Shown: positions 31,841-64,000 of the stretch, piece after piece
Position numbering within the stretch: the stretch's first letter is position 1
How the letters are laid out: each line of letters opens with the position of its first letter
Source: Omnitrophica WOR_2 bacterium GWF2_43_52
GTDB taxonomy: Bacteria > Omnitrophota > Gorgyraeia > Gygaellales > UBA12090
Length of the DNA stretch: 64,000 bases
Reading direction: 5' to 3'
Assembly (NCBI GenBank): GCA_001805445.1
Contig: MHGF01000036.1
Span: 7,526 to 71,525 of the forward strand
The notes under the pieces: generated by a model
Databases searched by the model: none
What the model was told of the DNA's origin: nothing
Seen by the model: only the letters and a program-made list of their open reading frames with translations
Position numbers and translations under genes: made by a program

Positions 31841-32608
31841 ATGATTTTAGCCGTAGATATAGGAAATACCACTATAACCATAGGCATATTCCGAAGAAAG
31901 AAGCTTATTCTTAAATCCAGCCTCGCGGCTCAAAAATATCGGAAGTTTAAAACCTTTTTAGAAGAAAATTTGAAAAAAAGCCATAACGCGTTGTCAGCCA
32001 TAGAGTGTGCGGTTATCTGTAGCGTAGTCCCTGGGGTTACGCCCACAATAGAAAAAGCAATAGGATCAAAGGGGAATATCCCTGTTTATGTCTTGGGGAA
32101 GAACCTTAAAGTTCCCATAAAGAATCTCTACGCGAAACCAAAACAAGTTGGCCAAGATCGCCTGTTGTGCGCCTATATGGCAATGAAGCTTTATGGCGCG
32201 CCGGTTATCTCCATAGATTTAGGAACTGCCCTTACGTTTGATGTGGTTTCTAAGAATAAAGAATATTTAGGGGGAATTATTTTTCCAGGATTAACGCTTT
32301 CATTAGCTGTACTCCATCGTTATACCGCTTTATTGCCTGAGGTAGAATTAAAGCAATCCAAAGCATTGATTGGGAAAAATGCGCAGGGGAGCATGCTCTC
32401 AGGAATCACGTATGGTTATGGAAGTTTGATTGATGGATTAGTGGAAAAGTTGAAGAAGGAAATTCACGGTAAGCCAAAGATAATTGCTACTGGCGGGGAT
32501 AGCCTATTCGTAAAACGATATTGTGCCAGTATAGATTTCTTTGAGCCAGGCCTAATTTTAAAAGGAATGGCAGAATTGTTTGAAGAAACAGCATATGATA
32601 CGCGATAA
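31841..32608 (+). CDS. coaX: Type III pantothenate kinase
   Basis: MILAVDIGNTTITIGIF, ...GTA.TFD...GG.I.PG; 255 aa; birA-coaX adjacency is common. Confidence 0.9.
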   Translation: MILAVDIGNTTITIGIFRRKKLILKSSLAAQKYRKFKTFLEENLKKSHNALSAIECAVICSVVPGVTPTIEKAIGSKGNIPVYVLGKNLKVPIKNLYAKPKQVGQDRLLCAYMAMKLYGAPVISIDLGTALTFDVVSKNKEYLGGIIFPGLTLSLAVLHRYTALLPEVELKQSKALIGKNAQGSMLSGITYGYGSLIDGLVEKLKKEIHGKPKIIATGGDSLFVKRYCASIDFFEPGLILKGMAELFEETAYDTR

Positions 32609-33761
32609 GAATATTCTCTTTGTGATTACAAAATTAGAATTAGGAGGCGCCCAAAAACAATTATTAAACCTGATAAAACATTTAGATAGGGAAAACAATA
32701 ATATTTTCTTGTTTACCGCTAAAAGTGGTTTATTACATGCTGAAACATTATCAATGGCAGGGCTCAAGGTAAAAAAATCAGGATTCCTGGAACGCTCTCC
32801 GCATCCCTTAAAGGATTTATTGGCGTTATGCGAGCTATATTTTTTTATTAAAAGAAATAATATTGATATTGTGCATACCCATAGCTCTAAAGCGGGCATT
32901 CTTGGGCGCATAGCAGCATGGTTAGCAAAAGCAAAAGGTGTGGTGCACACCGTTCATGGCTGGTCATTTAATGATTACCAGCCATTTTTTGTGCGCGAGC
33001 TTTATATTTTCTTGGAAAGATTGGTTGCGCGAGTTACTGATATACTGGTAGTCGTTTCTTGCCATGATCGCACTAAGGGTATAGCCAATCATATCGGGAC
33101 TATTGGAAAGTATGTTCTTATTCGTTACGGTATTAATTATTCGGAATTTGCTGGGACAGATAACGGAAATGTAAGGAAAGAATTAGGGCTAACAGCGGAT
33201 GATTTGGTTGTTGGGATGGTGGCATGTTTTAAGCCGCAAAAGGCTCCGCAGGATTTTATTAAGATGGCATCTTTGGTTAACGAGGTTCTGCCCGAAGTGA
33301 AGTTTATTTTAATCGGTGATGGGATTTTACGTAAAAAGATAGAATACCTTATTAGGCAGCTTAAATTACAAAAACAGATAGTATTATTGGGCTGGCGCCG
33401 GGATATCCCAAGAATTTTATCGGCACTTGATATTTTTGTGCTTACTTCCTTATGGGAGGGATTACCGATATCGGTATTGGAGGCGATGGCTTCCTCTAAG
33501 TCTGTAGTAGTTACTGATACTGGTGGAGTTCGGGAGGTAGTACGTGAGAACGAGACAGGCTTTTTAACCGCGCCAAAAGATATTCCCGCAATGGCGCAAA
33601 GGCTTGAGATTTTGTTAAAGGATAAAGGCTTGAGAGAGGCTTATGGGGGCAATAGTAGAGAGAGCCTCTCTCTGGATTTTCATCTTGATACTATGCTCTT
33701 TTGTACTCAGCATTGCTACAGAATTTTATTAGAAGGAAGAAAAGTTGCAGATATTTATTAA
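32580..33761 (+). CDS. Glycosyltransferase family 4
   Basis: N-terminal KILFVITKLELGGAQKQLLNL; C-terminal GT4 nucleotide-sugar-binding region (EGLPISVLEAMASSKSVVVTDTGG). Confidence 0.85.
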   Translation: MKKQHMIRDKNILFVITKLELGGAQKQLLNLIKHLDRENNNIFLFTAKSGLLHAETLSMAGLKVKKSGFLERSPHPLKDLLALCELYFFIKRNNIDIVHTHSSKAGILGRIAAWLAKAKGVVHTVHGWSFNDYQPFFVRELYIFLERLVARVTDILVVVSCHDRTKGIANHIGTIGKYVLIRYGINYSEFAGTDNGNVRKELGLTADDLVVGMVACFKPQKAPQDFIKMASLVNEVLPEVKFILIGDGILRKKIEYLIRQLKLQKQIVLLGWRRDIPRILSALDIFVLTSLWEGLPISVLEAMASSKSVVVTDTGGVREVVRENETGFLTAPKDIPAMAQRLEILLKDKGLREAYGGNSRESLSLDFHLDTMLFCTQHCYRILLEGRKVADIY

Positions 33762-34719
33762 ACCTGTTCTTACTATCCTCATTTCTTTTGCCTTGTGTTC
33801 CGTTTTTTTATGCTTTTTAAAGAAACAATTTTTACAGAGAGCGCCGCAGTGTATCCCTTCAGTCGGTGGGATTAGCATAGGGATAGTATCGCTTATAGTC
33901 TGTTTTTTAGTGCTTTTTATAGGTAAGGGGCTATCCCACAATATGATAGGGATTTTAGCCTCTTCTTTTATAATGTTGCTGTTTGGTATCATTGATGATA
34001 TCTTTGAATTGTCAATAGTGGCTAAATTCATCGCCCAGATTTTCTCACTATCAGTCTTGATTGCTTGGGGTATAAGGGCTAATATCGTTGGTATTGGTGT
34101 TTTACTGAATTTAGTGGTAACGTTTCTATGGGTTTTGGGGGTTTCTAATGCTTTTAACCATTTAGATGTAATGGATGGCCTGGCAGGAATGGTTGCAATG
34201 ATGGTGAGTTTTGGTTTGCTATGGGTAAGCATTGGAACCTTCGATATCCAGGCAATTATTTTACTCTGCGCGCTCATAGGGGCCTTATGGAGTTTTTTAA
34301 TTTACAACTTTCCCCCAGCAAAGGTTTATTTAGGCAATGCTGGGAGCCATTTCTTGGGATTTATTATAGCATCGCTTGCTTTATTAGCACACTATGCGCC
34401 TTTAGAAAGAAAGATTGCCCTGCTTTCACCTTTAGCTATTCTTGGTTTTCCTGTTTTCGATACGGCATTCGTAATAGTAATGCGTTTGCGTAAGCATCAA
34501 TCTCCTTTTAAGAAAAGTGACGACCATCTTGCATTACGATTGCTAAAAAATGGATATACAAAAAAAGGGGCGCTGATTTTTATGGCTTCCTTATGCATCT
34601 TTTTTGTGGTGAGCGGGATAGTTTTAAGCAGCGTTTCTAATATAATCGGCCTTAGAGTTATTATAACTGTTGTTTTAGTGAGTTTATGCGTAGTTGTCCA
34701 ATGTAGTAAAATAGGATAA
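33745..34719 (+). CDS. Polyprenyl-phosphate sugar-1-phosphate transferase (WecA/MraY family); likely initiating enzyme
   Basis: About 10 TM helices; NAFNHLDVMDGLAG corresponds to the MraY/WecA NxxNxxDGIDGL motif. Confidence 0.75.
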   Translation: MQIFIKPVLTILISFALCSVFLCFLKKQFLQRAPQCIPSVGGISIGIVSLIVCFLVLFIGKGLSHNMIGILASSFIMLLFGIIDDIFELSIVAKFIAQIFSLSVLIAWGIRANIVGIGVLLNLVVTFLWVLGVSNAFNHLDVMDGLAGMVAMMVSFGLLWVSIGTFDIQAIILLCALIGALWSFLIYNFPPAKVYLGNAGSHFLGFIIASLALLAHYAPLERKIALLSPLAILGFPVFDTAFVIVMRLRKHQSPFKKSDDHLALRLLKNGYTKKGALIFMASLCIFFVVSGIVLSSVSNIIGLRVIITVVLVSLCVVVQCSKIG

Positions 34720-36032
34720 TGGCGAAGAAGAAAAGGATCATCATTGTAGGTGCAGGATTGTCAGGATTAAGTGCTGCATGGCATCTTCAGAAAAGAGGGA
34801 TAGAATGTCTAGTCTTTGAGAAAGAACCCGAGGTAGGAGGACTATGTCGTTCTAAAAAAATAAACGGCTTTACTTTTGATTACGCAGGGCATCTTTTACA
34901 TTTTAGGCATCGTTACGCTTTTAATCTTGTTAAGCGTTTACTAAGCGATAATCTACACCCATATAAACGGAGTGCTTGGGTTTATTCTCATGAGCGGTAT
35001 ATACCGTATCCTTTTCAGGCAAATCTTTTTGGTTTACCTCCTAAAGTTGTTAAAGACTGCCTCATGGGTTTTATTCAGGCGCATCATAATAAGCGTTTCC
35101 TCAAAAAAAGAAATATGAGTTTTCATGATTGGATATACGATACTTTTGGCAAAGGGATAGCGGCCCATTTTATGGTTCCTTATAACAGGAAATTTTGGAC
35201 AGTTCCCCTTACTGAATTAACCTGTGAATGGTTGAATGGTTTTATCCCTTTACCCTCTTTAGCTGAGGTAGTTGAAGGAGCTGTGCAAAAGACAAAAAAA
35301 GATGGTTGGGGATACAATAGCCGCTTTTGGTACCCCGAGAAAGGGGGTATTGCTTCGCTTCCTTTGGCGTTAGCAAGGCAGATTAGAAATATATATACCC
35401 ATTGCGAAATTGTAGAGGTAAACTCCAAGGAAAAAGAAATCAGAATGAAGTCAGGAAGCAAAGAAAAATTCGATTGCCTTATTTCTACAATTCCTTTGCC
35501 TGAGTTCGGCTGTTTATTTAAAAGTCTCCCACAGTCGATACATAGTTTATTGCATAAATTAAAATGGAATTCTATTTTTAATCTTAATTTAGGCCTCCAA
35601 AAGAGAAAGAATGCGCACTGCCACTGGGTATATTTCCCGCAAAAAGAAATCAATTTTTTTCGCATAGGGTTCCCTTCGTGTTTTTCTCCATACACAGTAC
35701 CATCGCGGGGGAGTTCCTTATATGCAGAGGTGGCATATTCCAAGGATCAACCCATCGACAAAAGCTCGATAGTCTCCTCTATCAAGAAGGATTTGCAAAA
35801 GATAGGAATCATAGGAGGCGAAGGTGATGTGTGTGCCCAGGATGTTAACGATATAAGATACGGATATCCTATTTATGACAAAAACTATCGAGGAGCAAGA
35901 AAAGGCATAGTGCGCTTCCTCTTGCAAAAACAAATTATTCCCTGCGGCCGTTTTGGCTCATGGCGGTATATGAGTATGGAAGATGTGCTATTAAATGGCA
36001 TGGAATTAGCAAAGAGCATAGCTCATTATTAA
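34719..36032 (+). CDS. FAD-dependent oxidoreductase, UDP-galactopyranose mutase-like
   Basis: Rossmann IIIVGAGLSGLSAA...FEKEPEVGG; internal FWYPEKGGI; C-terminal CGRFGSWRYMSMEDV resembles the Glf C-terminus (GRLG.Y.Y..MD). Confidence 0.55.
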   Translation: MAKKKRIIIVGAGLSGLSAAWHLQKRGIECLVFEKEPEVGGLCRSKKINGFTFDYAGHLLHFRHRYAFNLVKRLLSDNLHPYKRSAWVYSHERYIPYPFQANLFGLPPKVVKDCLMGFIQAHHNKRFLKKRNMSFHDWIYDTFGKGIAAHFMVPYNRKFWTVPLTELTCEWLNGFIPLPSLAEVVEGAVQKTKKDGWGYNSRFWYPEKGGIASLPLALARQIRNIYTHCEIVEVNSKEKEIRMKSGSKEKFDCLISTIPLPEFGCLFKSLPQSIHSLLHKLKWNSIFNLNLGLQKRKNAHCHWVYFPQKEINFFRIGFPSCFSPYTVPSRGSSLYAEVAYSKDQPIDKSSIVSSIKKDLQKIGIIGGEGDVCAQDVNDIRYGYPIYDKNYRGARKGIVRFLLQKQIIPCGRFGSWRYMSMEDVLLNGMELAKSIAHY

Positions 36033-36033
36033 A

Positions 36034-36855
36034 ATGGTTGCTATTTTACAAGAAATATTTTCCAGAAGAAATTTATTATATGAGCTTGTTATGAGAGATT
36101 TAAAGATTCGTTATGCAAGGAAATCAATGGGGTTTCTTTGGACTTTTTTAATGCCTTTTGCAACAGTTATAACTTTCTACGTAATTTTTTGCCAAATATT
36201 AAAGGTCAAAATAGGGGAAGCACCTTTTTTCTTATATTTAATGAGCGGGGTATTCAGTTGGAGGTTTTTTCACGATTCTGTTGCTGCTGCTACTACGTGT
36301 TTAACGGATAATAAGAAGTTGGTTCAAGAACCGGCCTTCCCCCATTATTTTATTCCTCTCGCGATTACCCTTGCCAATGTAATTAATTTTCTCCCTTCTT
36401 TATTTATTACGGTAGTTATTTCTTTGTTCGTCTCACGCGGAAATGTTATTTTTATTTTTTCTTTACCTTTTATTATATGTATCCATGTTTGTTTAACCGC
36501 AGGCGTTGCAGTTATTTTCTCTATTCTTTATGTGCGATGGAGGAATGTTAAATATGTTGTAGAATTATTTCTATTCGAAGCCTTCTATGCAACTCCTGTC
36601 TTTTATTCGATATATTTAATCAAAGCCACATTCCCCGATATATTCTTTAAGATATTTCTTTGTAACCCATTTACGGGTATTTTGAATTTGTATCGTATCG
36701 CTTTATTGCGGGGCTTTTATGACATGACCAAAAATGACCTTAGCATTTTTAGTTTAATCATTGGTCCTCTCGTCTTTACAATCGGGATTCTTATTCTTGG
36801 ATATATGCTTTACGAGAGGCATAAAACTATAATTAATGATTATTTGTCAGGATAA
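36034..36855 (+). CDS. wzm: ABC-2 type polysaccharide export permease (Wzm/KpsM/TagG-like)
   Basis: MRDLKIRYARKSMGFLWTFLMPF signature; 6 TM helices; 273 aa. Confidence 0.85.
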   Translation: MVAILQEIFSRRNLLYELVMRDLKIRYARKSMGFLWTFLMPFATVITFYVIFCQILKVKIGEAPFFLYLMSGVFSWRFFHDSVAAATTCLTDNKKLVQEPAFPHYFIPLAITLANVINFLPSLFITVVISLFVSRGNVIFIFSLPFIICIHVCLTAGVAVIFSILYVRWRNVKYVVELFLFEAFYATPVFYSIYLIKATFPDIFFKIFLCNPFTGILNLYRIALLRGFYDMTKNDLSIFSLIIGPLVFTIGILILGYMLYERHKTIINDYLSG

Positions 36856-36858
36856 AAT

Positions 36859-38595
36859 ATGATTCCGTTACTTTTAAACGATACCGCTATGGCTGTTTCT
36901 TTGGGCGCGTTAAGCAAGAAATATCCGCTTCAGGCAGTATCCGGGAGCCACACGCGCTATCTGGGTGGCGAATTTTGGGCATTAAAGGATATCTCTTTAA
37001 GTATTCCTCAGGGACATATTTTAGGTATCCTTGGCCGGAATGGCTCAGGCAAGACAACACTTTTAAATGTCGTTGCAGGAATCGTACCTCCTACCAAGGG
37101 AAAGGTTGTGACCAAGGGGAAGGTGCTTGGCTTGTTTAACTTGGGAATAGGGTTTCAAGATGAACTCAGCGGGAGAGAAAATATTTTTCTTAATGGGTCG
37201 ATTATTGGAGCAGGAAAGACGGAGCTTGAAAATGCATTATCGGCAATTATAGACTTTTCAGAGTTGGGAGATTTTATTGATATGCCCTTAGGCAGCTATT
37301 CGCAAGGCATGCGTTTGCGTTTAGGTTTTAGTATTATTGCCCATTTGGATTTTGAGGTATTGGTGATTGATGAAATTTTAACTGTAGGAGACATCCTATT
37401 TCAAAATAAGTGCTTTCAGCGTTTGATAGAGTTTAAACATTCAGGAAAAACATTGCTGATAACTACGCAAAGCATGGATTTGCTTGAGAGGCTTTGTGAT
37501 ACAGTTGCCCTTTTGGAGCATGGATGCTTATTGTTTCATGGTGAAGCAGAAAAAGCTGTTAACCACTATTATGCCCTATTAAATGCAAAGAAGTTCTTTG
37601 TAGGGTTACCGAAAGAGAACGTGCGTATGGTTGAGACTACCAAGAAATGGGCGGATAATAGATCGGAGTGGGGTTTACGGCTTGGGACAAAGGAAGCGGA
37701 AATACATTCCCTTAGCCTTTATAATAAATTCGGATTGCTCTGTAAGCGTATTAGAAGTGGCCAACCATTAAAACTAAGAGTTAATTTTAGTGTTAATACT
37801 ATTATTAAGGATCCGCATTTTGGAATAGCAATATTCAGAAAAGATGGGGTCTATTGCTACGGGCCTAATACTCTCTTTGATGGGCACAAAATCCCAGAGC
37901 TCAAAAAAGGGAAAGGGTGGTTTTCTCTTCATTATAAGAAATTATGGTTAGCTCCCGGAGAGTATGTGCTCTCAGTAGCTATTTGGGATAAATATGAGAC
38001 CGTGGCGTTTGATTACCATTGTGGTTATTATACGTTATTAGTAACAGGAGCTGATAATAGAGATAACAAGCTTTTAGATGTCAAAGCCAAGTATAAGCTT
38101 TCAAGGAAAAAATATCGCCCATATACTTTTATAAAAAAAAGTGATGCCAGAGCCATTATGCCATTTCTTAGCGATGCGAGCGTCCATAAGCAGCAGTATG
38201 CCGGCATAGAAATACAATCATTTTTACTCTCCCACCCCTCTGGGCAAAAAAAAGGTATTTTTATCACTAATCAGCCGGTTATGTTTCGTATCACTATAAG
38301 TACTCATTTGCTTGAGGAAAAAGGTAGAGATATATGGTTTGGCATCTTTAGGGAAGATGGTATTTATTGCCACGGAATATCGTTCGCGATAGAAAACGAT
38401 ACCAGGATTACTCTTGTGTACCCTCAACTGCCGTTATTACCGGGAAAATACGGGGTTTCGATTGGACTCTCGAATAAAAAAACGCGTAGGCCATTTCTGC
38501 ACTTCCCCGGGATACATTCGTTTTGTATGACATTTGATAAACATGATCATGGAACAGTTTATCTAGAGCATTCTTGGGCATGGAAAATGGCCTAA
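36859..38595 (+). CDS. wzt: Polysaccharide ABC transporter ATP-binding protein (Wzt/TagH-like) with about 330-aa C-terminal extension (likely glycan-binding domains)
   Basis: Walker A GRNGSGKTT, signature SYSQGMRLRLGF, Walker B VLVIDE; long beta-rich C-terminal extension, possibly duplicated. Confidence 0.85.
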   Translation: MIPLLLNDTAMAVSLGALSKKYPLQAVSGSHTRYLGGEFWALKDISLSIPQGHILGILGRNGSGKTTLLNVVAGIVPPTKGKVVTKGKVLGLFNLGIGFQDELSGRENIFLNGSIIGAGKTELENALSAIIDFSELGDFIDMPLGSYSQGMRLRLGFSIIAHLDFEVLVIDEILTVGDILFQNKCFQRLIEFKHSGKTLLITTQSMDLLERLCDTVALLEHGCLLFHGEAEKAVNHYYALLNAKKFFVGLPKENVRMVETTKKWADNRSEWGLRLGTKEAEIHSLSLYNKFGLLCKRIRSGQPLKLRVNFSVNTIIKDPHFGIAIFRKDGVYCYGPNTLFDGHKIPELKKGKGWFSLHYKKLWLAPGEYVLSVAIWDKYETVAFDYHCGYYTLLVTGADNRDNKLLDVKAKYKLSRKKYRPYTFIKKSDARAIMPFLSDASVHKQQYAGIEIQSFLLSHPSGQKKGIFITNQPVMFRITISTHLLEEKGRDIWFGIFREDGIYCHGISFAIENDTRITLVYPQLPLLPGKYGVSIGLSNKKTRRPFLHFPGIHSFCMTFDKHDHGTVYLEHSWAWKMA

Positions 38596-38859
38596 GTATA
38601 GGTTTTTTCTATGGTATTTTCTAGGGATACCATAACTTTGTTACTGCTGGCAAGGAATGGATTTTACGGCAAGGGGCGTTTATAATCAAAACACATAAGC
38701 GACAGAAATTATTTCAGCGAAGAAAACCAGAATTATCAAGCCTTCTTCCTGTCGAGCATTCCATACATTAAATTGAAAAGGCGAAAGCCCTGTAATCCTT
38801 TAGGCCTTATCTTGAGTTAGCGCGAGCCTGTAACACAAAGGAAATCCAGAGACTAAAGC

Positions 38860-46053: not shown

Positions 46054-46084
46054 TAGTAAATCCTGTGTAATGTTCTGGCAGCCT

Positions 46085-47995: not shown

Positions 47996-47998
47996 CGA

Positions 47999-54039: not shown

Positions 54040-54174
54040 AAGGAGTTTAAAGAACAGAAGCGCAATAGTGCCTTGTCAAATAATAAAAACCAAAACAGTG
54101 TAGCGGGGTGCGCGAGCTTTTTTTATGACGCTACTATGAGTCAACGCAGGGCGCTTGCGCTTTAAAAGGACAGA

Positions 54175-55626: not shown

Positions 55627-56629
55627 GGAGATTTTTAAGATAAAGATGTTCGGGAAGAGAATGCCTTTAGCAGTGACCTGGAGTATTACCGATAGATGTA
55701 ATTTTCAGTGTTACTATTGCGGCAGGTGGAAGATGAGTACGCAGGAGCTCTCAACAGATGATGCGATGGCGCTTATATCGGGTCTTGCAAACGCGCGGTG
55801 CCTGAGAATAGTCTTTGGGGGAGGGGAACCGTTATTGAGAAAGGACATAGGGCTATTAATTGATTTCTGTAAGAAAAAGGGGATTTCTACCGGCCTGATC
55901 TCAAACGGTTATTTTCTCGCAGAAAGGATAGACGAAATAAGGAATATTGATACGTTGGCATTGAGCATTGACGGAATTGGAGGAGTGTGCGATTTTATAA
56001 GGGGTACGTCAGGAGCCTATGAAAATGTCGTGGCGGCCATTAAAATAGCGAGGAAGAAAAAAATAAGAGTAATCCTGAATACTGTTTTAACAAGGTATAA
56101 TCTGGATCAGGTAGATTTGATTATAGAGTTTGCCACGAAACATGGTGCAGGGGTGATGTTTGGCCCTGTGAGCTCTATTCACTTCGGAGGCAGCGCAATA
56201 GATTCCCTAGTACCCGGCAAATCGGAATTTCGAAATATCATTGATACATTAGTTGGATACAAAAAAGATAAAAAACCTATACTTAATTCTCTTGCCGCGT
56301 TACATTATATGCATGATTGGCCATATTATAAGCAGATACCTTGTTATGCGGGAAGGGTTTTTTGTCATATTTCAGCAAACGGCAGTTTTTATCCCTGCGT
56401 GGCGCTGGAGGGCAGCGTTACGGCATCTTGCCTGCGTCATGATTTTAGTGAAGTTCTGGAGGCAGTTTCGCATAAGACAAGGCATTGTAATGGATGTTGG
56501 TGCACAGGGACATTAGAGTTTAACCAAATGTTATCCCTCAAACTAACGGCATTGATGAGTATTTTACATTTCGCTACATCTCCGCCAAAAATTAGGAACC
56601 GAAGAATTCATGAGCCATGTAAGATTTAA
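55595..56629 (+). CDS. Radical SAM/SPASM-domain protein, paralog 1 of 5
   Basis: PLAVTWSITDRCNFQCYYCG; GGGEPLL; C-terminal Cys cluster CYAGRVFCH...YPC...CNGCWCTGTLEFN. Start chosen at MRLSKKL by alignment with paralogs. Confidence 0.75.
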   Translation: MRLSKKLKACKEIFKIKMFGKRMPLAVTWSITDRCNFQCYYCGRWKMSTQELSTDDAMALISGLANARCLRIVFGGGEPLLRKDIGLLIDFCKKKGISTGLISNGYFLAERIDEIRNIDTLALSIDGIGGVCDFIRGTSGAYENVVAAIKIARKKKIRVILNTVLTRYNLDQVDLIIEFATKHGAGVMFGPVSSIHFGGSAIDSLVPGKSEFRNIIDTLVGYKKDKKPILNSLAALHYMHDWPYYKQIPCYAGRVFCHISANGSFYPCVALEGSVTASCLRHDFSEVLEAVSHKTRHCNGCWCTGTLEFNQMLSLKLTALMSILHFATSPPKIRNRRIHEPCKI

Positions 56630-56695
56630 TGATTTCTGCGGAAGAGGCATGATAGGTAATGAGGAAAGGATGAGGCAGGCCTTTATCGGGTAGTT

Positions 56696-58276
56696 ATGGT
56701 AAAACGTGATACGGTGAAATTTAATGGTGGTTATCAAAGAATATCTGTTTATGCCATTCTTTTCTTGGGGATAGGTGGGTATACTGTGTTCTTTACCGCT
56801 TTGCAAGTAATAAAATACAGGACCTTGTTTACTCTTAATCCAATTAGTTTAGCAGGCTTCAACCAAGTGGCAATTAATACCGCCAGAGGAATCCCTTTTT
56901 ATTGTAGCTTTAGTAATGATGTCTTTGCCAATAATCATTTCCATCTCATTTTTATTCTCCTTGCATTAGCGTATAAAATATATCCCCATATCTATACTTT
57001 ATTTTTTTGCGTAAGTTTTGCTTTAGGAATAGGAGGAGTTGGTATCTATTTGATAACAAAGAAGCTCTTTTCTAGTATTCGGATGGGTGTATTCTTCTTT
57101 ATCGTATATTTACTCTCGCCCGTTTTGCATTTTATAAATTTTGTTGATTTTAGGCCAATTGTATTGAGCATACCTTTTTTTATCTTTATGGTTTACTTCT
57201 ATATGGAAGAAAAATTTATTCCTTTCTTTGTTTTTTCATCATTATTTCTTATGTGCCAGGAACATTTGGCATTTTGCTTGATGATGTTCGGAATATCTTC
57301 TATTTTCCGGAGAAAAAGCCTTCAATGGATACTTATGCCAATTATCTATGGGGGAGCATGGTTCATAGTCACGGCAACAATTATTTTGCCTTCTCTCGGG
57401 TATGAAATCTATAGGCCCCTTGAGGATTACTTCCGCGGGGAAAGAAACAGTTTGGCGCACGGCTGCCTTTGGATACTGGAAAATCCTCTGGCAGCATTGA
57501 AAATTATGTTTTCTTCAAGCCATATTTCTTATTTGGCAATGATAGTTAATCCCGCTATTTTTTCCATGGCAATCTTCTCCCCCGAAATATTGGTTTTCGC
57601 CTTTCCAACTTTCTTGGAGTTGTTGTTGCGTACTGATGCGTACCAGTTTACTCCTGATTTAGCAACTACCAGTATTTCTCCTATTTTTGTTTGCCTATTT
57701 CTGGCGCTTGTCCATAGTTATAAGAAAATATTCACAGCCGTTAATTCTTTGAAGTTACCAAGTGCTATACAAATAGGTTTTAAGAAAATAATATTATTAG
57801 CTTTAGTTTCATGGACATGTACAGGAAATCTTGGAAATAATTTAATCTTTGATAAGAATAGCAGGGAGAAAGGAGTGGATATTGCGGAAAAATTCAAAAG
57901 AGCCACCAATATGTTTGACCCAGTTTTTTATACCATCGAGGAGGATGATTATCTGGCATGGCGTTTGATTTCAGCAATCCCTGTTGAGGCTTCAGTCGCT
58001 ACAAGAGGCGATTTGTTGCCTGCTTTGTCGAATCGTGCCAGGCTCTATGAGTTTGGCAGAGTCGGTTTTCAGAAAAAAGAAAAAGAGGTGGGAGTAGGAA
58101 GTTACCTTTTACCTGACTATATAATTTTTAGAAGGAAAACGTGTTTTTACGGAGCATATAACGATGAGATCGATGACGCAATGGCGCTTGATTTTGCTCA
58201 TAGGCTCATAAACGAGCATACGTATAACAGTGTTGTTGAAAATGATACCTTTGTGTTTTTGAAAAGAAATCCTTAG
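56696..58276 (+). CDS. Polytopic membrane protein (DUF2079-like), paralog of the partial ORF at 62489
   Basis: About 12 TM helices; C-terminal conserved block MFDPVFYTIEEDDYLAWRLISAIPVEASVATRGDLLPALSNRARLYEFG shared with the downstream paralog. Confidence 0.5.
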   Translation: MVKRDTVKFNGGYQRISVYAILFLGIGGYTVFFTALQVIKYRTLFTLNPISLAGFNQVAINTARGIPFYCSFSNDVFANNHFHLIFILLALAYKIYPHIYTLFFCVSFALGIGGVGIYLITKKLFSSIRMGVFFFIVYLLSPVLHFINFVDFRPIVLSIPFFIFMVYFYMEEKFIPFFVFSSLFLMCQEHLAFCLMMFGISSIFRRKSLQWILMPIIYGGAWFIVTATIILPSLGYEIYRPLEDYFRGERNSLAHGCLWILENPLAALKIMFSSSHISYLAMIVNPAIFSMAIFSPEILVFAFPTFLELLLRTDAYQFTPDLATTSISPIFVCLFLALVHSYKKIFTAVNSLKLPSAIQIGFKKIILLALVSWTCTGNLGNNLIFDKNSREKGVDIAEKFKRATNMFDPVFYTIEEDDYLAWRLISAIPVEASVATRGDLLPALSNRARLYEFGRVGFQKKEKEVGVGSYLLPDYIIFRRKTCFYGAYNDEIDDAMALDFAHRLINEHTYNSVVENDTFVFLKRNP

Positions 58277-58311
58277 GGTTTTTCTTTAGCGTAGCACGTT
58301 GCTAAATAAAA

Positions 58312-59364
58312 ATGTTTTATTCTGCGAGCATGGATGTAAAGGGATTGGCCAACCTGAAGGATAAGATGCGGCGTATTGTATCCTTTTCTTTGCCTATTTT
58401 GAAAGCGCGGTTTCTTAAGCGGAAAATACCGTTATTTGTAGGCTGGGAATTGACTAATCGTTGTAATCTGAAATGTAGATATTGCGGTGTCGCTCACGCG
58501 GTAAGGGGAGGGGAATTAGACACGCAACGCATTTTGTTAATGGTAGATGGATTAAAACTGTTAGGTACACGGTTTATCAGTTTTACCGGCGGCGAGCCTT
58601 TGTTACGGCCTGATATAGGTTTAATTATAGATTATTGCAGGCAAAAGAATGTTTTTACTTCTCTCAATTCAAATGGAATTCTGGTGAAACAAAAGATTTC
58701 TGAAATTAAGAATGTTAATTGCGTCTGTCTTAGTTTAGATGGAGCAGAGGAAATCCATGATTCTATACGAGGAGCGGGGGTCTTTAAAGCGGTAATAGAG
58801 GCTGCCAGGATTATACAAAGAACAAACATCCCGTTAAAATTTTTTGTCACATTAACAGGTATTAATGTAAATCAAATTGATTTCCTAATAAACATAGCTA
58901 TGGAATATAATGCGGTTTTAGTCTTCCAGCCATCGGTACAAAATAAGCTTTATTCTAACGAGGTTAATGAGATATGCCTCTCGCGCGCAGAGAACGAAAT
59001 GGTTTTTAGACAATTGATATGCCGCAAGAGAAGACTAAGGAAAATGGTGATAGCGAATTCATACATGAATTTAGCGCATCTTAGCCATTGGCCTCATCCT
59101 CGATATATCCGTTGCGCGTCAGGGCATATCACGGGCCGTATCAAGAGTAACGGCGATTTTGCCCCATGCAACCGTTATGCGCTTCAAACAGCCGCAGGCG
59201 CGTCTCTGAGCCCGATGGATTTGAAGAGAAAATACCTTGCTCTTCAGAATATTTCCTGCGAAGAATGTTGGTGCGCTAATCGGGTAGAATTAAACTTGCT
59301 CTTTGCCCTGCAGTTAGAGCCAATTATTAATAGCATTAGGTATTTAGCGAGCAATAAAAAATAG
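58312..59364 (+). CDS. Radical SAM/SPASM-domain protein, paralog 2
   Basis: IPLFVGWELTNRCNLKCRYCG; FTGGEPLL; C-terminal CxxCWC. Confidence 0.75.
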   Translation: MFYSASMDVKGLANLKDKMRRIVSFSLPILKARFLKRKIPLFVGWELTNRCNLKCRYCGVAHAVRGGELDTQRILLMVDGLKLLGTRFISFTGGEPLLRPDIGLIIDYCRQKNVFTSLNSNGILVKQKISEIKNVNCVCLSLDGAEEIHDSIRGAGVFKAVIEAARIIQRTNIPLKFFVTLTGINVNQIDFLINIAMEYNAVLVFQPSVQNKLYSNEVNEICLSRAENEMVFRQLICRKRRLRKMVIANSYMNLAHLSHWPHPRYIRCASGHITGRIKSNGDFAPCNRYALQTAAGASLSPMDLKRKYLALQNISCEECWCANRVELNLLFALQLEPIINSIRYLASNKK

Positions 59365-59435
59365 AATGAAAAAGCAGCTATGCAATGAATGCTGGCAGAC
59401 AATAGCAGGGGTGAATCCTGCTAAGGAGGCTGTGC

Positions 59436-60440
59436 GTGAAATTGCGGAATAAGTTGAAGATCGCCAAAGAAACCTTAGAAGTAAAATTTCTTAAAAAGAA
59501 AATTCCTATAGCGGTGACATGGGCGATTACCAATACCTGTAATTTGCAATGTAGATATTGCGGAAGGTGGAAAACAAATTCTGATGAGCTGTCAACGCAG
59601 GAGGCGAAGATAATTATCGAACAGCTTGCTCATGCTGGGTGCATGAGAATATCTTTTTTAGGAGGAGAACCTTTATTGAGAAAGGATATTGGAGATTTAA
59701 TTAATTTCTGTAAGGCGAAAGGTATTTCTATCAGTTTGATTTCGAATGGATATTTTGTTGCAGAAAAAATAAGCAAAATAAGCAATATTGATTTGCTGGA
59801 ATTAAGCATCGATGGAATTAATGATGAGGCAAATTTCTTAAGAGGCAAGGGTCTGTATGAAAGAGTGCTCACCGCGTTTAACTATGCTCGCGGAGCTGGG
59901 GTAAAAACGGTATTCAAGACGGTGTTGACAAAATATAATTTACATCACATAGGATCTATCCTGGAATTTGCCGTTAAGTGCGAAACGGGGGTTATGTTTG
60001 GCCCTGTAAGTTCTCTTCATTTCGCGAATGAAGAAATAAAGGAATTATTCCCCGATAGGGGAGAATTCAGAAGGGCTATAGAAATGCTTATGTGTGAAAA
60101 GAAACGAGGCAAGCCTATAATTAATTCAATGTATGCCTTACGGTATATGAGGGATTGGCCATATCCGCATCAGTGCCCTTGTTTTGCCGGCAGGGCGTTT
60201 TGCCATATAGCGCCGAATGGCATGGTGTATCCTTGTGCTGCTTTGGAAGGCAAAATAGAACCTTTCGTTTTTAAGGAATATGATTTTAAGAATATACTTC
60301 GTATTCTTTCCCGCGCTGATTTTAAGTGTGATGGCTGCTGGTGCAAGGGGACATTAGAATTTAATTACCTCCTTGCGTTGAAGCCATCTGCGCTACTATC
60401 GCTCTCAGATTGGATGGTAGTCTATAAAGAATTGATGTAG
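59436..60440 (+). CDS. Radical SAM/SPASM-domain protein, paralog 3
   Basis: IPIAVTWAITNTCNLQCRYCG; LGGEPLL; CPCFAGRAFCH...YPC...CDGCWCKGTLEFN. Confidence 0.75.
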   Translation: MKLRNKLKIAKETLEVKFLKKKIPIAVTWAITNTCNLQCRYCGRWKTNSDELSTQEAKIIIEQLAHAGCMRISFLGGEPLLRKDIGDLINFCKAKGISISLISNGYFVAEKISKISNIDLLELSIDGINDEANFLRGKGLYERVLTAFNYARGAGVKTVFKTVLTKYNLHHIGSILEFAVKCETGVMFGPVSSLHFANEEIKELFPDRGEFRRAIEMLMCEKKRGKPIINSMYALRYMRDWPYPHQCPCFAGRAFCHIAPNGMVYPCAALEGKIEPFVFKEYDFKNILRILSRADFKCDGCWCKGTLEFNYLLALKPSALLSLSDWMVVYKELM

Positions 60441-60445
60441 AAATT

Positions 60446-61441
60446 ATGGTGATGACATTAAGGAAGAAGATTGGGTTCGCGATCCCATTGTTAAATTTTC
60501 TTTTATTTAAGAAGAAAATCCCTTTTTTCATCGGATGGATGTTAACGGCACGGTGCAATAAGCAATGTAAATATTGCAGTATTTGGGATAGACGGGAGGC
60601 CGAATTGGATACCGGCACTATTATAGCTGTCGTTAGACAATTATCGCGGTTAGGAACCAAGTTTATTTCATTTTCAGGCGGCGAACCATTGTTAAGAGAT
60701 GATATAGGGGAAATAATCGATTGTGTTTCGCACCATAAAATGTATGTAAAAATCAATTCAAACGGGGCGTTGTTTGCCCAAAAGATACACAGGCTCAGGA
60801 AATTGAACGAAATAAAGCTCAGCCTTGATGGCCCAGAGGAAATACAGGATGAATTACGAGGAAAGGGTTCTTACCGGGAAGCTATAGCTGCGGCTACTGA
60901 CGCTAAAAGAAATATGATCAAGGTCAGTTTTAACACAGTTCTCTCAGCGCATAATCTTACCTGCCTTGGTTTTATATTGGATATCGCTAGGAAATTTGAG
61001 GCAAAAGTCACTTTTCAACCAGCAACTCCTTTTTTACTGGGAGGCGATAAAGTGAATCCCGTTACGCCTTTGCAGAATGACTACAGACGGGCAATAGCCA
61101 TACTCATCAATACCAAGAAAATGAATAAGCATATAGCTAATTCATTTTCAGGGTTAGCGTATCTTTATCGCTGGCCCTATGCGGTAAGAAAAATGCATTG
61201 TTACGGAGGGCGCTTTGGCTGCCGCATAGAGGTTAATGGTGCTCTTTCCCATTGCGGCGTATATCGTCATAAGGAAGATAGTGGTAATTTACAGAATTGC
61301 AAGCACTCAGATTTTAAACTCGCGTTCCAGAGGCTCGCGGAGATTTATTGTAATGAGTGCTGGTGCGCTCCGGATATCGAGATAAATTCTCTAATTTCGT
61401 TGCAACCGGAAGTTTTATGGAATAGTTTATTTTCTGGTTAG
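60446..61441 (+). CDS. Radical SAM/SPASM-domain protein, paralog 4
   Basis: IPFFIGWMLTARCNKQCKYCS; SGGEPLL; CYGGRFGC...CNECWC. Confidence 0.75.
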   Translation: MVMTLRKKIGFAIPLLNFLLFKKKIPFFIGWMLTARCNKQCKYCSIWDRREAELDTGTIIAVVRQLSRLGTKFISFSGGEPLLRDDIGEIIDCVSHHKMYVKINSNGALFAQKIHRLRKLNEIKLSLDGPEEIQDELRGKGSYREAIAAATDAKRNMIKVSFNTVLSAHNLTCLGFILDIARKFEAKVTFQPATPFLLGGDKVNPVTPLQNDYRRAIAILINTKKMNKHIANSFSGLAYLYRWPYAVRKMHCYGGRFGCRIEVNGALSHCGVYRHKEDSGNLQNCKHSDFKLAFQRLAEIYCNECWCAPDIEINSLISLQPEVLWNSLFSG

Positions 61442-61453
61442 GAATACTGCGCT

Positions 61454-62461
61454 ATGAGATTTCAGGACACTATGAGCTATTTAATCAGGTTATTGAAGAT
61501 CAAATTCTTTAATAATGGATTTCCCTTTGTTGTAAGATGGGATATTACGGCGCGTTGCCCCATGCAATGCAGATATTGCGATATATGGAAGCTAAAGATA
61601 AAAGAGTTAAATACCGCCACAATCCTGAGAATTATAGATGAAATGGCGCAGGAGGGAGTAAAAAAAATTTCTTTTTCCGGAGGGGAACCTTTGCTGAGGG
61701 AAGATATCTGCGAGATCGTGCATTATACCAAGGCAAAAGGAATATCCGCAGAGATTAATTCTACAGGGTATTCATTTGCCGATAAGGCGGAAAGATTGAA
61801 ATCTCTGGATTTAATAAAACTAAGCCTTGATGGCCCAAAAGAAATACATGATGTAGTACGAGGCAGGGAAGGGGCGTATGATTCTGTTATTGATGCTGCT
61901 TTGGCTGCGAAGAAACAAAGGATACCATTTAGGTTTTGCGTTACCCTGTCAGGGTATAATATCCAGTATGTTGGCTTTTTACTGCAGTTAGCCAGAGATT
62001 GTGAAGCGAAGATTGTTTTTCAGCCGTTAAAAGATATCAGGTATTTGAAGCATTGCAGTTTTATCTTTAAAACGGAGGAACAGCTTTTCCCTGCTCCTGA
62101 GCAGTTTCAGAAAGCGATACATATGCTTTTAAAATGTTGTAAAGAAGAAAGGCGCCTGATAAGCAATAGCCCTCAAACTTTGAGGCATATATATTATTGG
62201 CCAAAGTATGCAAAGCTGAAATGTTGGGCAGGCAAGATTTTTTGCATGATAAGTCCATCCGGCGAGATTTCGCCCTGTGATCGTCTTTTTTATGATGTGC
62301 AACTGCCTAACTGCGCGCAGACATCCTTTCGTCAAGCAGTTACAATGATGCCGCGTTTGCCTTTTTGTGAAGGGTGTGGTTTTTGGGGGTCATTGGTATT
62401 GAATTACGCTGCCAATTTTAAAGCTGATTTGGAATTGCTGAGAAAGGCAGCTCAATGCTGA
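61454..62461 (+). CDS. Radical SAM/SPASM-domain protein, paralog 5
   Basis: FPFVVRWDITARCPMQCRYCD; SGGEPLL; CWAGKIFC...CEGCGFWG. Confidence 0.75.
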   Translation: MRFQDTMSYLIRLLKIKFFNNGFPFVVRWDITARCPMQCRYCDIWKLKIKELNTATILRIIDEMAQEGVKKISFSGGEPLLREDICEIVHYTKAKGISAEINSTGYSFADKAERLKSLDLIKLSLDGPKEIHDVVRGREGAYDSVIDAALAAKKQRIPFRFCVTLSGYNIQYVGFLLQLARDCEAKIVFQPLKDIRYLKHCSFIFKTEEQLFPAPEQFQKAIHMLLKCCKEERRLISNSPQTLRHIYYWPKYAKLKCWAGKIFCMISPSGEISPCDRLFYDVQLPNCAQTSFRQAVTMMPRLPFCEGCGFWGSLVLNYAANFKADLELLRKAAQC

Positions 62462-62488
62462 AAGACAGAGTGAACTATAAAAACTAAT

Positions 62489-64000
62489 ATGGCAAGGGTA
62501 AAATCTGTTAATGGTAGCTTTCATTATTCGGTGTTTATGCTTGTTTTTTTTATTGCTGCCTATACAGGTTTTTTTTCCTATTTATCGGTTTTAAAGTATA
62601 AAGCGTTTTTTTCCCTCGCGGGAGATGATCTGGCCATAAGTAATAATATTCTTTGGCATAGCGCGAAAGGTAATTTCTTTTACCAGAGTATAGGAGAGCA
62701 CCTTTTAGATTTTCACGCGGGGTTTTTTTATTTTTTCCTTTCCGCAGCGTATAGGCTCTATCCGCACATCCCTACCCTTTTTGTATTTGAACATTTCGCA
62801 TTGGCATTGGGAAGCATCCCTCTGTACCATATTGGGAAGAAATTATTTAATTCAAGGCGCATTGCTTTCGTATCTGCTGTAGCGTATCTTTTTTCTAATC
62901 ATCTCCATCAACTCAGTTTTGCGGATCAGAATCCTATGGTAGCATTTTCAGTAACATTTTTCCTATGCGCCTTTTATTTCTTTTACAAAAGAAATTTAGC
63001 AGGATTTGTTATCTTTGCTTTATTAACGATGGCATGCCGTGAGGATGCCGCTTTCACAATTGCCGCCTTTAGCCTCTATGCTTTCCTGAAAAGAACTGAT
63101 TTAAGATGGAAAGTTATCCCTGGATTGCTTGGGGGAGGGTATTTTTTGGTTTTTTGGCATTTTCTATCCCCTTTTTTGAATTACAGCCCGCACAATCATC
63201 CATATATATGGAATTTTTTTGGTGAAAATCAAAACAAGTATACCTTGAGTCAGCTGGTATTAAATAATTTTACTCATTTTATTCAGCGTATTATTCGTAT
63301 TGATTCTTTCAGAACGATAGTAAATTTTTTTATTCACCCGGTATATTGCGTGTTTTTTTTGTTTTCGCCTCTCATTTTTGTGTTAAGCTTGCCAACGTTG
63401 CTCGCAATTCAGCTGTCTGCCCAAAAGTATTTTGTCAGTCTCGAGTCAGTACACCATTTTGCCTTAGGGGTGCCGGTATTCTTTTTGGCCAGTTTATCCG
63501 GGATTTATAACATCGCTGCATTATTACAGAAGAATGGGATTCTCCGCAGCCATTCAGCTAAAAACAAAATGCTTTGGTTGTTGGTTATCTTGTTTTCTCT
63601 ATTTCAGGTATCTTCCAATTTCGGGAGGAATATCCGTTTACCCTATGGAGGATTGTACCGTGAGGATTTAGATATAGCCGACCATCGTTTTGTTGCAGCA
63701 AAAAATATGTATGACCCCGTCTTTTACCGACAAGATGAGCACGACAAGAAGGCATGGGATCTTATCACAATGATACCAACAGAGGCATCGGTTTCTACAT
63801 CTAAGACTTATCTCGCAGCATTATCTTCAAGGGATAAAATTTTTTATTTTGGCACAAAAAGAGAGAGCAACGACTCTGAGGGGCATGATTTTGACGTTGA
63901 CTATATTTTTTTGAATAAAAATAATGATTATTCAGGGTTTGGCGGAATAGAAATAGGCCATTCGGTTGTTGCTCAAAAAATGCCTATACTGCGTCAGAGA
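62489..64000 (+). CDS. Polytopic membrane protein (DUF2079-like), 3'-truncated by the window end; paralog of 56696-58276
   Basis: Open frame from ATG 62489 to the window end. Shares VLKYKAFFSLAGDDLAI (like VIKYRTLFTLNPISLAGF) and NMYDPVFYRQDEHDKKAWDLITMIPTEASVSTSKTYLAALSSRDKIFYFG blocks with the paralog. Confidence 0.6.
   Translation, partial: MARVKSVNGSFHYSVFMLVFFIAAYTGFFSYLSVLKYKAFFSLAGDDLAISNNILWHSAKGNFFYQSIGEHLLDFHAGFFYFFLSAAYRLYPHIPTLFVFEHFALALGSIPLYHIGKKLFNSRRIAFVSAVAYLFSNHLHQLSFADQNPMVAFSVTFFLCAFYFFYKRNLAGFVIFALLTMACREDAAFTIAAFSLYAFLKRTDLRWKVIPGLLGGGYFLVFWHFLSPFLNYSPHNHPYIWNFFGENQNKYTLSQLVLNNFTHFIQRIIRIDSFRTIVNFFIHPVYCVFFLFSPLIFVLSLPTLLAIQLSAQKYFVSLESVHHFALGVPVFFLASLSGIYNIAALLQKNGILRSHSAKNKMLWLLVILFSLFQVSSNFGRNIRLPYGGLYREDLDIADHRFVAAKNMYDPVFYRQDEHDKKAWDLITMIPTEASVSTSKTYLAALSSRDKIFYFGTKRESNDSEGHDFDVDYIFLNKNNDYSGFGGIEIGHSVVAQKMPILRQR

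Follow-up and report, generated by a model that had tools for sequence, protein, structure and literature searches.

Organization of the locus

The DNA considered here is a 64,000-nucleotide stretch (the window) of the uncultivated Omnitrophica WOR_2 bacterium GWF2_43_52, and our subject is a gene cluster in its second half in which ten radical S-adenosylmethionine (rSAM) domains lie among genes predicted to build and export a surface glycan. Between positions 32580 and 64000, the listing of open reading frames (ORFs) together with Pfam/NCBIfam scans defined 22 genes, all on the + strand, with a coding fraction of 96.9%; at 16 of the 21 junctions the genes overlap or lie at most 35 nt apart, and the widest gaps measure 264, 258, and 135 nt. 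A preliminary description of this DNA, made from the sequence alone, had reported a co-directional, tightly packed locus running from 32580 to the window end, which was borne out for the packing and the start. The window end, however, is not the end of the cluster, which runs on past 64000 for at least 8 kb on the source contig (metagenome-assembled genome, MAG, GCA_003499645.1) with the remainder of a DUF2079 gene, a 616-AA protein with 15 transmembrane (TM) segments, a PMT_2 glycosyltransferase (GT) of the GT-C type with TPR repeats, a DegT/DnrJ/EryC1 aminotransferase, a 618-AA anchored protein, and a 640-AA multi-TM protein. The whole cluster is at least about 40 kb long.

The array opens with a GT4 gene, followed by genes for a WecA-family protein, a flavoenzyme, Wzm, Wzt with a Wzt_C domain, a long GT2, a second GT4, an rSAM-GT4 fusion, and a further GT4; the rest consists of a 651-AA protein, a B12-domain rSAM, a 594-AA protein with 12 TM segments, three B12-domain rSAMs, a small rSAM, a DUF2079 protein, four more small rSAMs, and a second DUF2079 protein (Table 1). 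The parts of an ABC-transporter-dependent glycan locus named in the preliminary description are therefore all present, with the four GT4s counted there resolving into three stand-alone proteins and one fused domain.

The ten rSAM domains (four with a B12 domain, five small paralogues, and the one fused to a GT4) fall within 20 kb and all retain an intact CxxxCxxC motif. None of the ten reached an NCBIfam equivalog cut-off, those of MoaA, HemW, and MiaB included, which supports the earlier view that they are not housekeeping enzymes. The 32.5 kb upstream are occupied by housekeeping genes (DnaG, RpoD, GpsA, threonine and leucine genes, ValRS, NadC, UvrB, BirA, and CoaX) and their sole rSAM is the MiaB/RimO-type methylthiotransferase encoded at 232-1554. 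At the cluster boundary, GC content declines to 0.394, from 0.443 in the upstream DNA. Based on the single upstream rSAM and this fall in GC, we concluded that the density of rSAMs is genuine and local.

Table 1. Genes of the cluster within the window and the matches behind each assignment. Labels L004-L097 and P0087, here and in the text, denote contigs or loci of relatives or other assemblies in our synteny survey.
Feature	Position	Strand	Evidence
GT4_a	32580..33761	+	Pfam Glycos_transf_1 3.9e-39 and Glyco_transf_4; best NCBIfam TIGR03088, sub-cut-off; 29-nt overlap with coaX
WecA/MraY-family polyprenyl-phosphate HexNAc-1-P transferase (initiating)	33745..34719	+	PF00953 Glycos_transf_4 2.1e-28; ECA_wecA 87.7 bits, sub-cut-off
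UDP-galactopyranose-mutase (UGM)-like flavoenzyme	34719..36032	+	PDB phmmer A. fumigatus and T. cruzi UGM, E 3e-47; Pfam Amino_oxidase, NAD_binding_8
Wzm-type ABC-2 permease	36034..36855	+	NCBIfam galactan export permease Wzm/RfbD 2.3e-14, sub-cut-off; ~5 hydrophobic segments (crude hydropathy count)
Wzt ATPase with C-terminal glycan-binding-type domain (two Wzt_C stretches)	36859..38595	+	ABC_tran 1e-16; Wzt_C 2.3e-31
Long GT2: N-terminal GT-A, coiled coil (~AA 300-400), C-terminal domain, TM anchor	38860..40719	+	Glycos_transf_2 1.3e-23; sequence inspection
GT4_b, conserved-core member	40716..41912	+	Glycos_transf_1 1.5e-38; syntenic in mapped relative loci
rSAM (twitch/SPASM) + GT4 fusion, 812 AA	42171..44609	+	Pfam Radical_SAM, SPASM, GT4; CNLKCIMC at AA 25
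GT4_c, conserved-core member	44698..46053	+	Glyco_trans_1_4 7.6e-29; synteny
651-AA protein, N-terminal signal/anchor and large soluble domain	46040..47995	+	One N-terminal hydrophobic segment; same species only
B12_1	47999..49303	+	Radical_SAM 1.5e-20, B12-binding sub-threshold; NCBIfam BchE and HpnJ ~145 bits, sub-cut-off; L097 orthologue 47%
GT-C-like 12-TM membrane protein, 594 AA	49300..51084	+	Pfam GT-C_AftD (N-domain) 4.1e-5, below gathering; ~12 hydrophobic segments; L060 orthologue
B12_2	51077..52594	+	Radical_SAM 4e-17, B12-binding 3.9e-7; HpnJ 152 bits, sub-cut-off
B12_3	52591..54039	+	B12-binding 1.3e-16, Radical_SAM 5.7e-24; PDB AprD4 2.7e-25
B12_4	54175..55626	+	Radical_SAM 5.2e-17, B12-binding sub-threshold; HpnJ 131 bits
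rS_1	55559..56629	+	Radical_SAM 2.8e-23; true start probably later (55595 or beyond), other assemblies call alternative starts
DUF2079_1, GT-C-like membrane protein	56696..58276	+	Pfam DUF2079 1.4e-33; low-confidence AlphaFold2 (AF2) model
rS_2	58312..59364	+	Radical_SAM 1e-23; paralogue alignment
rS_3	59436..60440	+	Radical_SAM 6.6e-26; AF2 pLDDT 91.9; Foldseek PqqE, BlsE, SkfB, SuiB, viperin, DesII
rS_4	60446..61441	+	Radical_SAM 4e-22; paralogue alignment
rS_5	61454..62461	+	Radical_SAM 3.2e-23, SPASM 0.003; paralogue alignment
DUF2079_2, GT-C-like membrane protein, cut by window end	62489..64000	+	Pfam DUF2079 3.3e-36; 524 AA on source contig (full length in L007)

The radical SAM proteins

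The rSAM-GT4 fusion had already been named in the preliminary description, and Pfam places Radical_SAM, SPASM, and GT4 domains within this one protein; among the small rSAMs and the fusion, the SPASM match is significant in the fusion only (6.4e-11). Searched against the PDB, a profile of the GT4-fused rSAM domain matched BtrN best (E 2.9e-16), by way of its twitch domain. BtrN is an rSAM dehydrogenase that oxidizes a secondary alcohol of an aminocyclitol, and it partners a DegT-family aminotransferase. The fusion architecture recurs in Omnitrophota at 34-62% identity, and an exhaustive phmmer search of 1.84 billion (1.84e9) representatives returned about ten 50%-identity clusters with the full architecture. 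The rSAM-GT4 fusion is thus rare and yet, judging from these clusters, has been made repeatedly, and because the attached transferase constrains the substrate, it gives experiments a direct point of entry.

The four B12-domain proteins share only 25-29% identity, carry CxxxCxxC at residues 202-211, and all align end to end with class-B NCBIfam models (HpnJ, BchE, BzaD, PhpK), in keeping with the four B12-rSAMs originally counted. For three of the four, HpnJ ranked first among the NCBIfam models, with 131-175 bits against a cut-off of 578. In the PDB, the nearest matches to a profile of this family were AprD4 (E 5e-39), the uncharacterized 9CCB protein, and OxsB (E 1e-19), with TsrM, TokK, and CysS weaker, and no NCBIfam cut-off of a characterized methyltransferase subfamily (GenK, Fom3, PhpK, TsrM, TokK, HpnR, and others) was reached. 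AprD4 is a sugar diol-dehydratase acting on an aminoglycoside sugar, in which the B12-binding domain is present without use of cobalamin, and OxsB contracts a deoxyribose ring. The preliminary description had suggested a poly-C-methylated or otherwise radically modified glycan; because the nearest relatives and models, AprD4, OxsB, and HpnJ, are non-methylases, poly-C-methylation is weakened to one option among several, and C-methylation by these proteins is conceivable, without specific backing. In L094 and in an archaeon, orthologues of B12_3 (44-49% identical) have small-rSAM and DegT genes as neighbors.

The five small rSAMs, each of ~335 AA, form a paralogous group with pairwise identities of 31-54%. 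Their C-termini carry four cysteines that are invariant or nearly so over 37 family members, spaced C-x17-C-x30-C-x2-C in rS_3 numbering, with two additional cysteines in three to four of the five; the Pfam SPASM match is not significant (best 0.003). This four-cysteine pattern suggests a single auxiliary cluster that would be twitch-like rather than a clear seven-cysteine SPASM arrangement, so that the five proteins reported earlier as SPASM-rSAMs stand, with twitch-like as the more apt label. Among the Foldseek matches of the rS_3 model with the top E-values, BlsE had the highest TM-score (0.70/0.72), and anSME was also returned. The gap 5' of rS_3 (59365-59452, +) holds a 28-codon ORF reading MKKQLCNECWQT..., which echoes the C(N/E)(E/G)CWC auxiliary-cluster motif at the C-termini of the small rSAMs and may be a duplication relic or a chance likeness.

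Glycan assembly and membrane proteins

The putative initiating transferase has ~11 hydrophobic segments, and ECA_wecA aligned over its full length. The flavoenzyme aligned with eukaryote-type UGM structures over residues 7-334 of 418 and scored 50 bits against the bacterial Glf model TIGR00031 (cut-off 304); it is clearly a relative, by sequence, of the eukaryote-type UDP-galactopyranose mutases. The Wzm assignment depends on a weak NCBIfam match in the window, and the orthologues in relatives bear Pfam ABC2_membrane; for Wzt, the NCBIfam TagH and galactan Wzt models gave about 165-175 bits. The long GT2 is syntenic among Omnitrophota loci. Its coiled coil, rich in glutamine and leucine, is placed between the GT-A domain and the C-terminal domain, the latter having no family assignment, an architecture that resembles the molecular rulers WbdD and WbbB, the chain-length regulators of Wzt systems with a carbohydrate-binding module. 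No Wzx- or Wzy-type family was found among the scanned cluster ORFs of at least 100 AA, and the 616- and 640-AA multi-TM proteins beyond the window have no assigned family.

The three GT-C-like membrane proteins listed for the window in the preliminary description were recovered as the 594-AA protein, with its weak AftD match, and the two DUF2079 proteins, which are 31% identical to each other; with PMT_2, the extended locus would encode at least four proteins of GT-C type. The AF2 model of DUF2079_1 (pLDDT 59.6), shallow because the homologue search found three proteins only, gave Foldseek matches with E <0.05 solely to DPY19, ALG12, STT3, and PglB, at TM-scores of 0.38-0.46. GT-C enzymes take lipid-phosphate-linked sugar donors at the outward-facing side of the membrane, which suggests that some rSAM-tailored sugars arrive as polyprenyl-phosphate sugars and are added after export.

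Two large proteins have no detectable family. The 651-AA protein has no Pfam, NCBIfam, or PDB relative (a trehalase-like match was insignificant, E 0.11), and the 618-AA protein beyond the window (L007 17360-19216) is like it in having a single N-terminal hydrophobic segment. The two could be periplasmic glycan-processing enzymes or acceptor proteins.

Recurrence in related genomes

For a survey of synteny, the fusion alignment was searched against one genome per GTDB species, and the loci found were annotated with HMMs built from the window proteins. The order (GT4-WecA-UGM-like)-Wzm-Wzt-long GT2-GT4-(320-AA rSAM)-(B12/other rSAM)-(rSAM)GT4-GT4 was found, complete or partial, in those Omnitrophota loci that were mapped in detail. 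A tblastn search of the 258-nt gap 5' of the fusion detected no trace of the 320-AA core rSAM. At least one rSAM lay within 10 kb of the GT4 in 14 of 15 Omnitrophota loci, so that the co-occurrence noted in the preliminary description does recur in related genomes, and likewise in three of four loci of Planctomycetes-labelled MAGs; in other phyla, where the homologues are GT4-only (Obscuribacterales, Solirubrobacterales, Chloroflexota, and others), 57 of 60 loci had no rSAM nearby. The other loci hold two to five rSAMs per ~22 kb, making the window the extreme case. Further fusions were a B12-rSAM + twitch-rSAM + GT4 triple fusion of 1245 AA (L012 10001-13738) and a GT2 + rSAM fusion of 683 AA (L011 14629-16680), and in L022, L025, and L060 the same domains are encoded by separate neighboring genes.

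The small-rSAM profile also detects its family outside Omnitrophota. In six independent contexts of this family, a B12 rSAM accompanied it in five, a GT-C protein (PMT_2/YfhO/DUF2079) in four, and DegT in three; small GT2, LPG_synthase_TM, ABC-2 transporter, and Wzy_C ligase-type genes were further frequent neighbors. Orthologues of individual window proteins in other contigs are 42-57% identical (B12_3 44-49%, B12_1 47%, DUF2079_1 50%, DegT 57%), and since distinct orthologues exist elsewhere, the paralogues appear to be old, functionally separate lineages rather than recent tandem copies. An archaeal MAG (GCA_041661245.1; L093 3718-12440) carries the cassette GT2-rSAM-B12rSAM-DegT-rSAM-(PEP-utilising domain)-unknown-B12rSAM, and the 44% identical orthologue of B12_3 within it indicates that the tailoring module spans domains of life.

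Domain fusions, Omnitrophota synteny, and the recurring rSAM/GT-C cassette are three independent lines from which we conclude that the link between the rSAMs and the glycan genes is not coincidental; together they support the view that the rSAMs are functionally part of the glycan pathway.

Two features of the related loci are recorded here in their own right. In a related Omnitrophota locus (L011 1159-4242), the flavoenzyme, Wzm, and Wzt genes are interrupted by insertions of AbiEii (toxin/abortive-infection type) and DUF3800 genes. Two contigs of one Planctomycetales-labelled MAG (L022 and L023) carry the complete core twice, with 5184 differences over 23531 aligned positions, reflecting either a paralogous duplication or a bin mixture of two strains.

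Proposed pathway and alternative explanations

The cluster probably directs the ABC-transporter-dependent synthesis of a surface glycan in which radical SAM chemistry tailors the sugars, a reading that rests entirely on sequence inference from uncultivated organisms. By homology, the WecA-type enzyme would prime the lipid carrier, the UGM-like flavoenzyme would provide a furanose donor, and the long coiled-coil GT2 and the GT4s, one of them bearing the BtrN-like twitch rSAM domain, would extend the chain at the cytoplasmic face, after which Wzm/Wzt would export it, the Wzt C-domain implying recognition of a defined terminus. A coupling of the predicted rSAM activity to glycosyltransfer is shown by the fusion and the synteny. 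In the tailoring steps, the B12-domain proteins and the five twitch-like rSAMs would take hydrogen atoms from sugar carbons of nucleotide- or lipid-linked intermediates, with keto-sugar oxidation, deoxygenation or dehydration, epimerization, ring rearrangement, or C-methylation as candidate outcomes; keto sugars could then feed the DegT aminotransferase encoded just downstream. The GT-C-like proteins (the 594-AA protein, the two DUF2079 proteins, and the downstream PMT_2) may then, in the periplasm, transfer the tailored sugars from their lipid carriers to the exported glycan. The product would be a polyprenol-linked cell-surface glycan, similar to an O-antigen or an S-layer glycan, with lipopolysaccharide (LPS) or a protein as acceptor. 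Such a set of enzymes resembles an anaerobic counterpart of the toolbox that tailors sugars in aminoglycoside and nucleoside antibiotics, with an aminotransferase in addition.

Several observations weigh against this reading. The reactions of the individual rSAMs cannot be read from homology because no equivalog cut-off was reached, and of the four B12-domain proteins a single one exceeds the gathering score of Pfam B12-binding, the other three being sub-threshold. The solved structures nearest to the profile of the five small rSAMs are SkfB, PqqE, and CteB (E ~1e-24), all of them peptide maturases, and the DUF2079 model is of low confidence. Moreover, a small GtrB/ArnC-like GT2, a flippase, and a WaaL-type ligase or oligosaccharyltransferase are absent from the window and the following 8 kb, which leaves the GT-C donor route incomplete in the readable part of the locus. 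Elsewhere, a small GT2 and a flippase-like protein are present in the cassette in L094 and L097, and Wzy_C ligase-type genes adjoin the related loci L012 and L094 and the P0087 contig.

We weighed four other accounts of the rSAMs. They might act on a lipid, methylating, cyclizing, or coupling the polyprenol carrier or the lipid of a glycolipid as in the hopanoid, ladderane, and glycerol dialkyl glycerol tetraether (GDGT) pathways. The best NCBIfam models of the B12-domain proteins do include HpnJ, HpnR, and a ladderane-type lipid B12-rSAM, those of the small rSAMs include HpnH and Tes, GDGT-MAS is among the PDB matches, and Omnitrophota are mentioned in the literature in the context of tetraether-lipid producers. 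The lipid-type NCBIfam matches, however, lie far under the family cut-offs, and HpnJ itself works on the sugar part of the hopanoid. No lipid-synthesis gene (prenyl synthase, squalene/hopene cyclase, acyl or ether lipid enzyme) was found in the locus by Pfam/NCBIfam scans, and the domains to which rSAMs are fused are glycosyltransferase catalytic domains, all of which makes a lipid substrate unlikely.

We judged it similarly improbable that the rSAMs serve to make a non-carbohydrate substituent (for example methylated, phosphonate-type, aminoacyl, or cyclitol) for an otherwise ordinary glycan, perhaps a cap read by the Wzt C-domain. That domain is present, and it implies a defined terminal modification, as established for E. 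coli O8/O9a; Pfam scans of the locus found no classical SAM methyltransferase or kinase terminator, PhpK-type P-methyltransferase and BzaD models gave moderate NCBIfam scores, and the archaeal cassette includes its PEP-utilising-domain protein. Nine or ten rSAMs nevertheless far exceed the needs of a single cap, no phosphonate genes (PEP mutase and the like) were seen in the window, and the rSAM-GT4 fusions argue that the radical step targets the donor or acceptor sugar of the transferase itself.

The preliminary description had also offered a glycosylated product resembling a ribosomally synthesized and post-translationally modified peptide (RiPP), in which the rSAMs would mature a ribosomal peptide or protein (RiPP-like or a glycopeptide) that the GTs then glycosylate. 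The peptide maturases nearest to the small rSAMs speak for it, as do SuiB and anSME among the Foldseek matches of the rS_3 model and the mycofactocin, PqqE, and sactipeptide maturase models among the top NCBIfam matches. Six-frame translation of the six gaps of at least 50 nt, however, gave only ORFs of 24-28 codons without leader or core character, and no cluster protein matched a Pfam or NCBIfam model of a RiPP recognition element (RRE)/PqqD, leader protease, or RiPP exporter. Only ~30 residues precede CxxxCxxC in the small rSAMs, too few for a fused RRE. In the six independent loci the neighbors of the small rSAMs belong mostly to sugar pathways (DegT, GT2, GT4, PMT_2, YfhO, Wzy_C), and GT4 or GT2, not peptide-binding domains, are the fusion partners of the rSAM domains. 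We therefore consider a peptide substrate very unlikely, and this part of the preliminary description was not sustained.

Finally, chance adjacency of unrelated housekeeping or orphan rSAMs, for which one could cite the standing of surface-polysaccharide loci as recombination hot spots that gather cargo, the GC drop at the boundary, and the strain-variable 3' end, is scarcely credible and effectively refuted, given that none of the ten reaches a housekeeping equivalog cut-off, start and stop codons overlap or almost abut along the array, and the fusions and synteny recur and are conserved over species and phyla.

Comparison with characterized systems

Among known systems, the tailored-glycan pathway proposed here is in its general plan closest to those of E. 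coli O8/O9a (WecA-WbdABC-WbdD-Wzm/Wzt), the Klebsiella galactans, and Geobacillus slg, with which it shares a WecA-family start, cytoplasmic assembly by GT2 and GT4 enzymes, export by Wzm/Wzt with a Wzt C-domain, no Wzx/Wzy detected in the scanned cluster ORFs, and a multidomain coiled-coil GT reminiscent of the WbdD/WbbB rulers. Those systems, however, contain none or at most one rSAM where this locus has ten, are terminated by a classical methyltransferase/kinase or a Kdo-transferase, and lack multiple GT-C proteins; unlike in them, WaaL or an oligosaccharyltransferase was not seen in the readable part of the present locus. Mycobacterial arabinogalactan synthesis (WecA, Glf/UGM, galactan Wzm/Wzt, DprE1/E2, and Aft/Emb GT-C enzymes) likewise combines WecA, a UGM, and Wzm/Wzt, and the galactan exporter models are the best NCBIfam match for Wzm and the second-best for Wzt. 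Several GT-C proteins, one here with the weak AftD match, are common to both, as may be the logic of modifying a lipid-linked sugar in the cytoplasm and adding it outside by a GT-C enzyme. Unlike in that pathway, the matches are sub-cut-off, rSAMs replace the flavin/NADH pair DprE1/E2, and the host is an anaerobic bacterium of the PVC group.

The cassette recalls the Arn (ArnB/ArnC/ArnT) and Gtr systems in the combination of DegT, a small GT2, a flippase-like protein, and PMT_2/YfhO/DUF2079 GT-C proteins in L094, L097, and the P0087 contig; at the present locus, PMT_2 and DegT lie just past the window. In place of any counterpart of the NAD-dependent ArnA step, the cassette has two to four rSAMs, and the readable part of the present locus yielded neither the small GT2 nor the flippase of Arn/Gtr. 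Enzymes of antibiotic pathways (BtrN in butirosin, AprD4 in apramycin, GenK/GenD1 in gentamicin, OxsB in oxetanocin, BlsE in blasticidin S, and DesII in desosamine biosynthesis) are among the solved relatives closest to the window rSAMs, and the pairing of BtrN with DegT is matched by the DegT gene here. The likeness holds at the superfamily or domain level only, with 14-24% identity in structural alignments; the substrates of the antibiotic enzymes are small soluble secondary metabolites, not polyprenol-linked polymers, and none of those enzymes is fused to a GT. The hopanoid side-chain pathway (HpnH, the GT2 HpnI, HpnK, and HpnJ) similarly combines a GT2 with a B12-domain rSAM that rearranges a lipid-bound sugar, but the locus has no squalene-hopene cyclase or other hpn gene, and its rSAMs stand in a Wzm/Wzt and GT-C context.

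A preprint on complete Omnitrophota genomes groups GT group 1, starch synthase, and radical SAM in a single module of co-occurring Pfam families in the giant proteins of the phylum and notes LPS/capsule glycosyltransferases in hypervariable loci, with neither observation interpreted (10.64898/2026.06.07.730766). No account of such a locus and no characterized counterpart was found in the searchable full-text literature, in line with the statement in the preliminary description that the combination matched no characterized system. The chassis is of a known pathway kind; the radical tailoring layer, the rSAM-GT fusions, and the rSAM/GT-C cassette are undescribed. We tentatively suggest that they represent an unrecognized class of glycan tailoring in Omnitrophota and sporadically in other anaerobes, archaea included, in which dedicated rSAMs, some fused to GTs, would act at unactivated C-H positions of surface sugars, whether lipid-linked or polymeric, by C-methylation, deoxygenation, epimerization, oxidation-amination, or ring rearrangement. 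Such a class would be a polysaccharide counterpart of RiPP maturation and would yield sugars unseen in characterized glycans.

To our knowledge, nearly all known rSAM chemistry on carbohydrates belongs to pathways for small-molecule antibiotics, and surface-polysaccharide loci are thought to use NAD, pyridoxal-phosphate, or classical SAM-methyl enzymes on nucleotide sugars. If the pathway operates as proposed, a conserved surface-glycan route with ten rSAMs would constitute a new tier of enzymology in glycobiology, the rSAM-GT fusions indicating that radical chemistry and glycosyltransfer are linked. Unusual sugars (branched, deoxy, amino, or rearranged) would then be expected on the cell envelopes of a phylum that is ubiquitous yet uncultivated and made up of ultra-small bacteria, possibly dependent on hosts, and compact enzymes of ~330-480 AA would become available for oxygen-independent C-H functionalization of sugars.

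Genomic setting and strain variation

An Rfam scan of the window found no riboswitch, cobalamin riboswitches included, and only a tRNA-Gly and a tRNA-Pro far upstream. Promoter-like sites in a consensus scan were no commoner than in shuffled sequences, and the 24 terminator-like sites against a shuffle mean of 15.8 (sd 3.9) are a slight, uninformative excess. All family-assigned ORFs in window 1-64000 lie on the + strand, and every 2-kb bin has a positive GC skew (0.06-0.24), a strong bias consistent with a long leading-strand segment. The position of the locus next to coaX was not seen in other species. In the window, coaX and the first GT4 (31841-33761) overlap by the 29 nt given in Table 1, and in MAG GCA_003516535.1 (L004 1-1591) a single 594-AA ORF is called there, either a fusion or frameshift variant or an artefact of assembly or gene calling.

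Matching sequence also occurs in groundwater assemblies from the Rifle aquifer, and the host is uncultivated. The ENA assembly ERZ27254745 (L010 1003-9289) is nucleotide-identical to window 54175-62461, seven genes from B12_4 to rS_5. Past rS_5, L010 9317-19289 departs from the source contig (L007 11036-21008): PMT_2 and DegT are 86% identical, the gene for the 616-AA 15-TM protein is missing, and an extra YfhO-type GT-C gene is present. From this identity up to rS_5, followed by divergence with gene loss and gain, it follows that the 3' end of the locus has been exchanged between strains.

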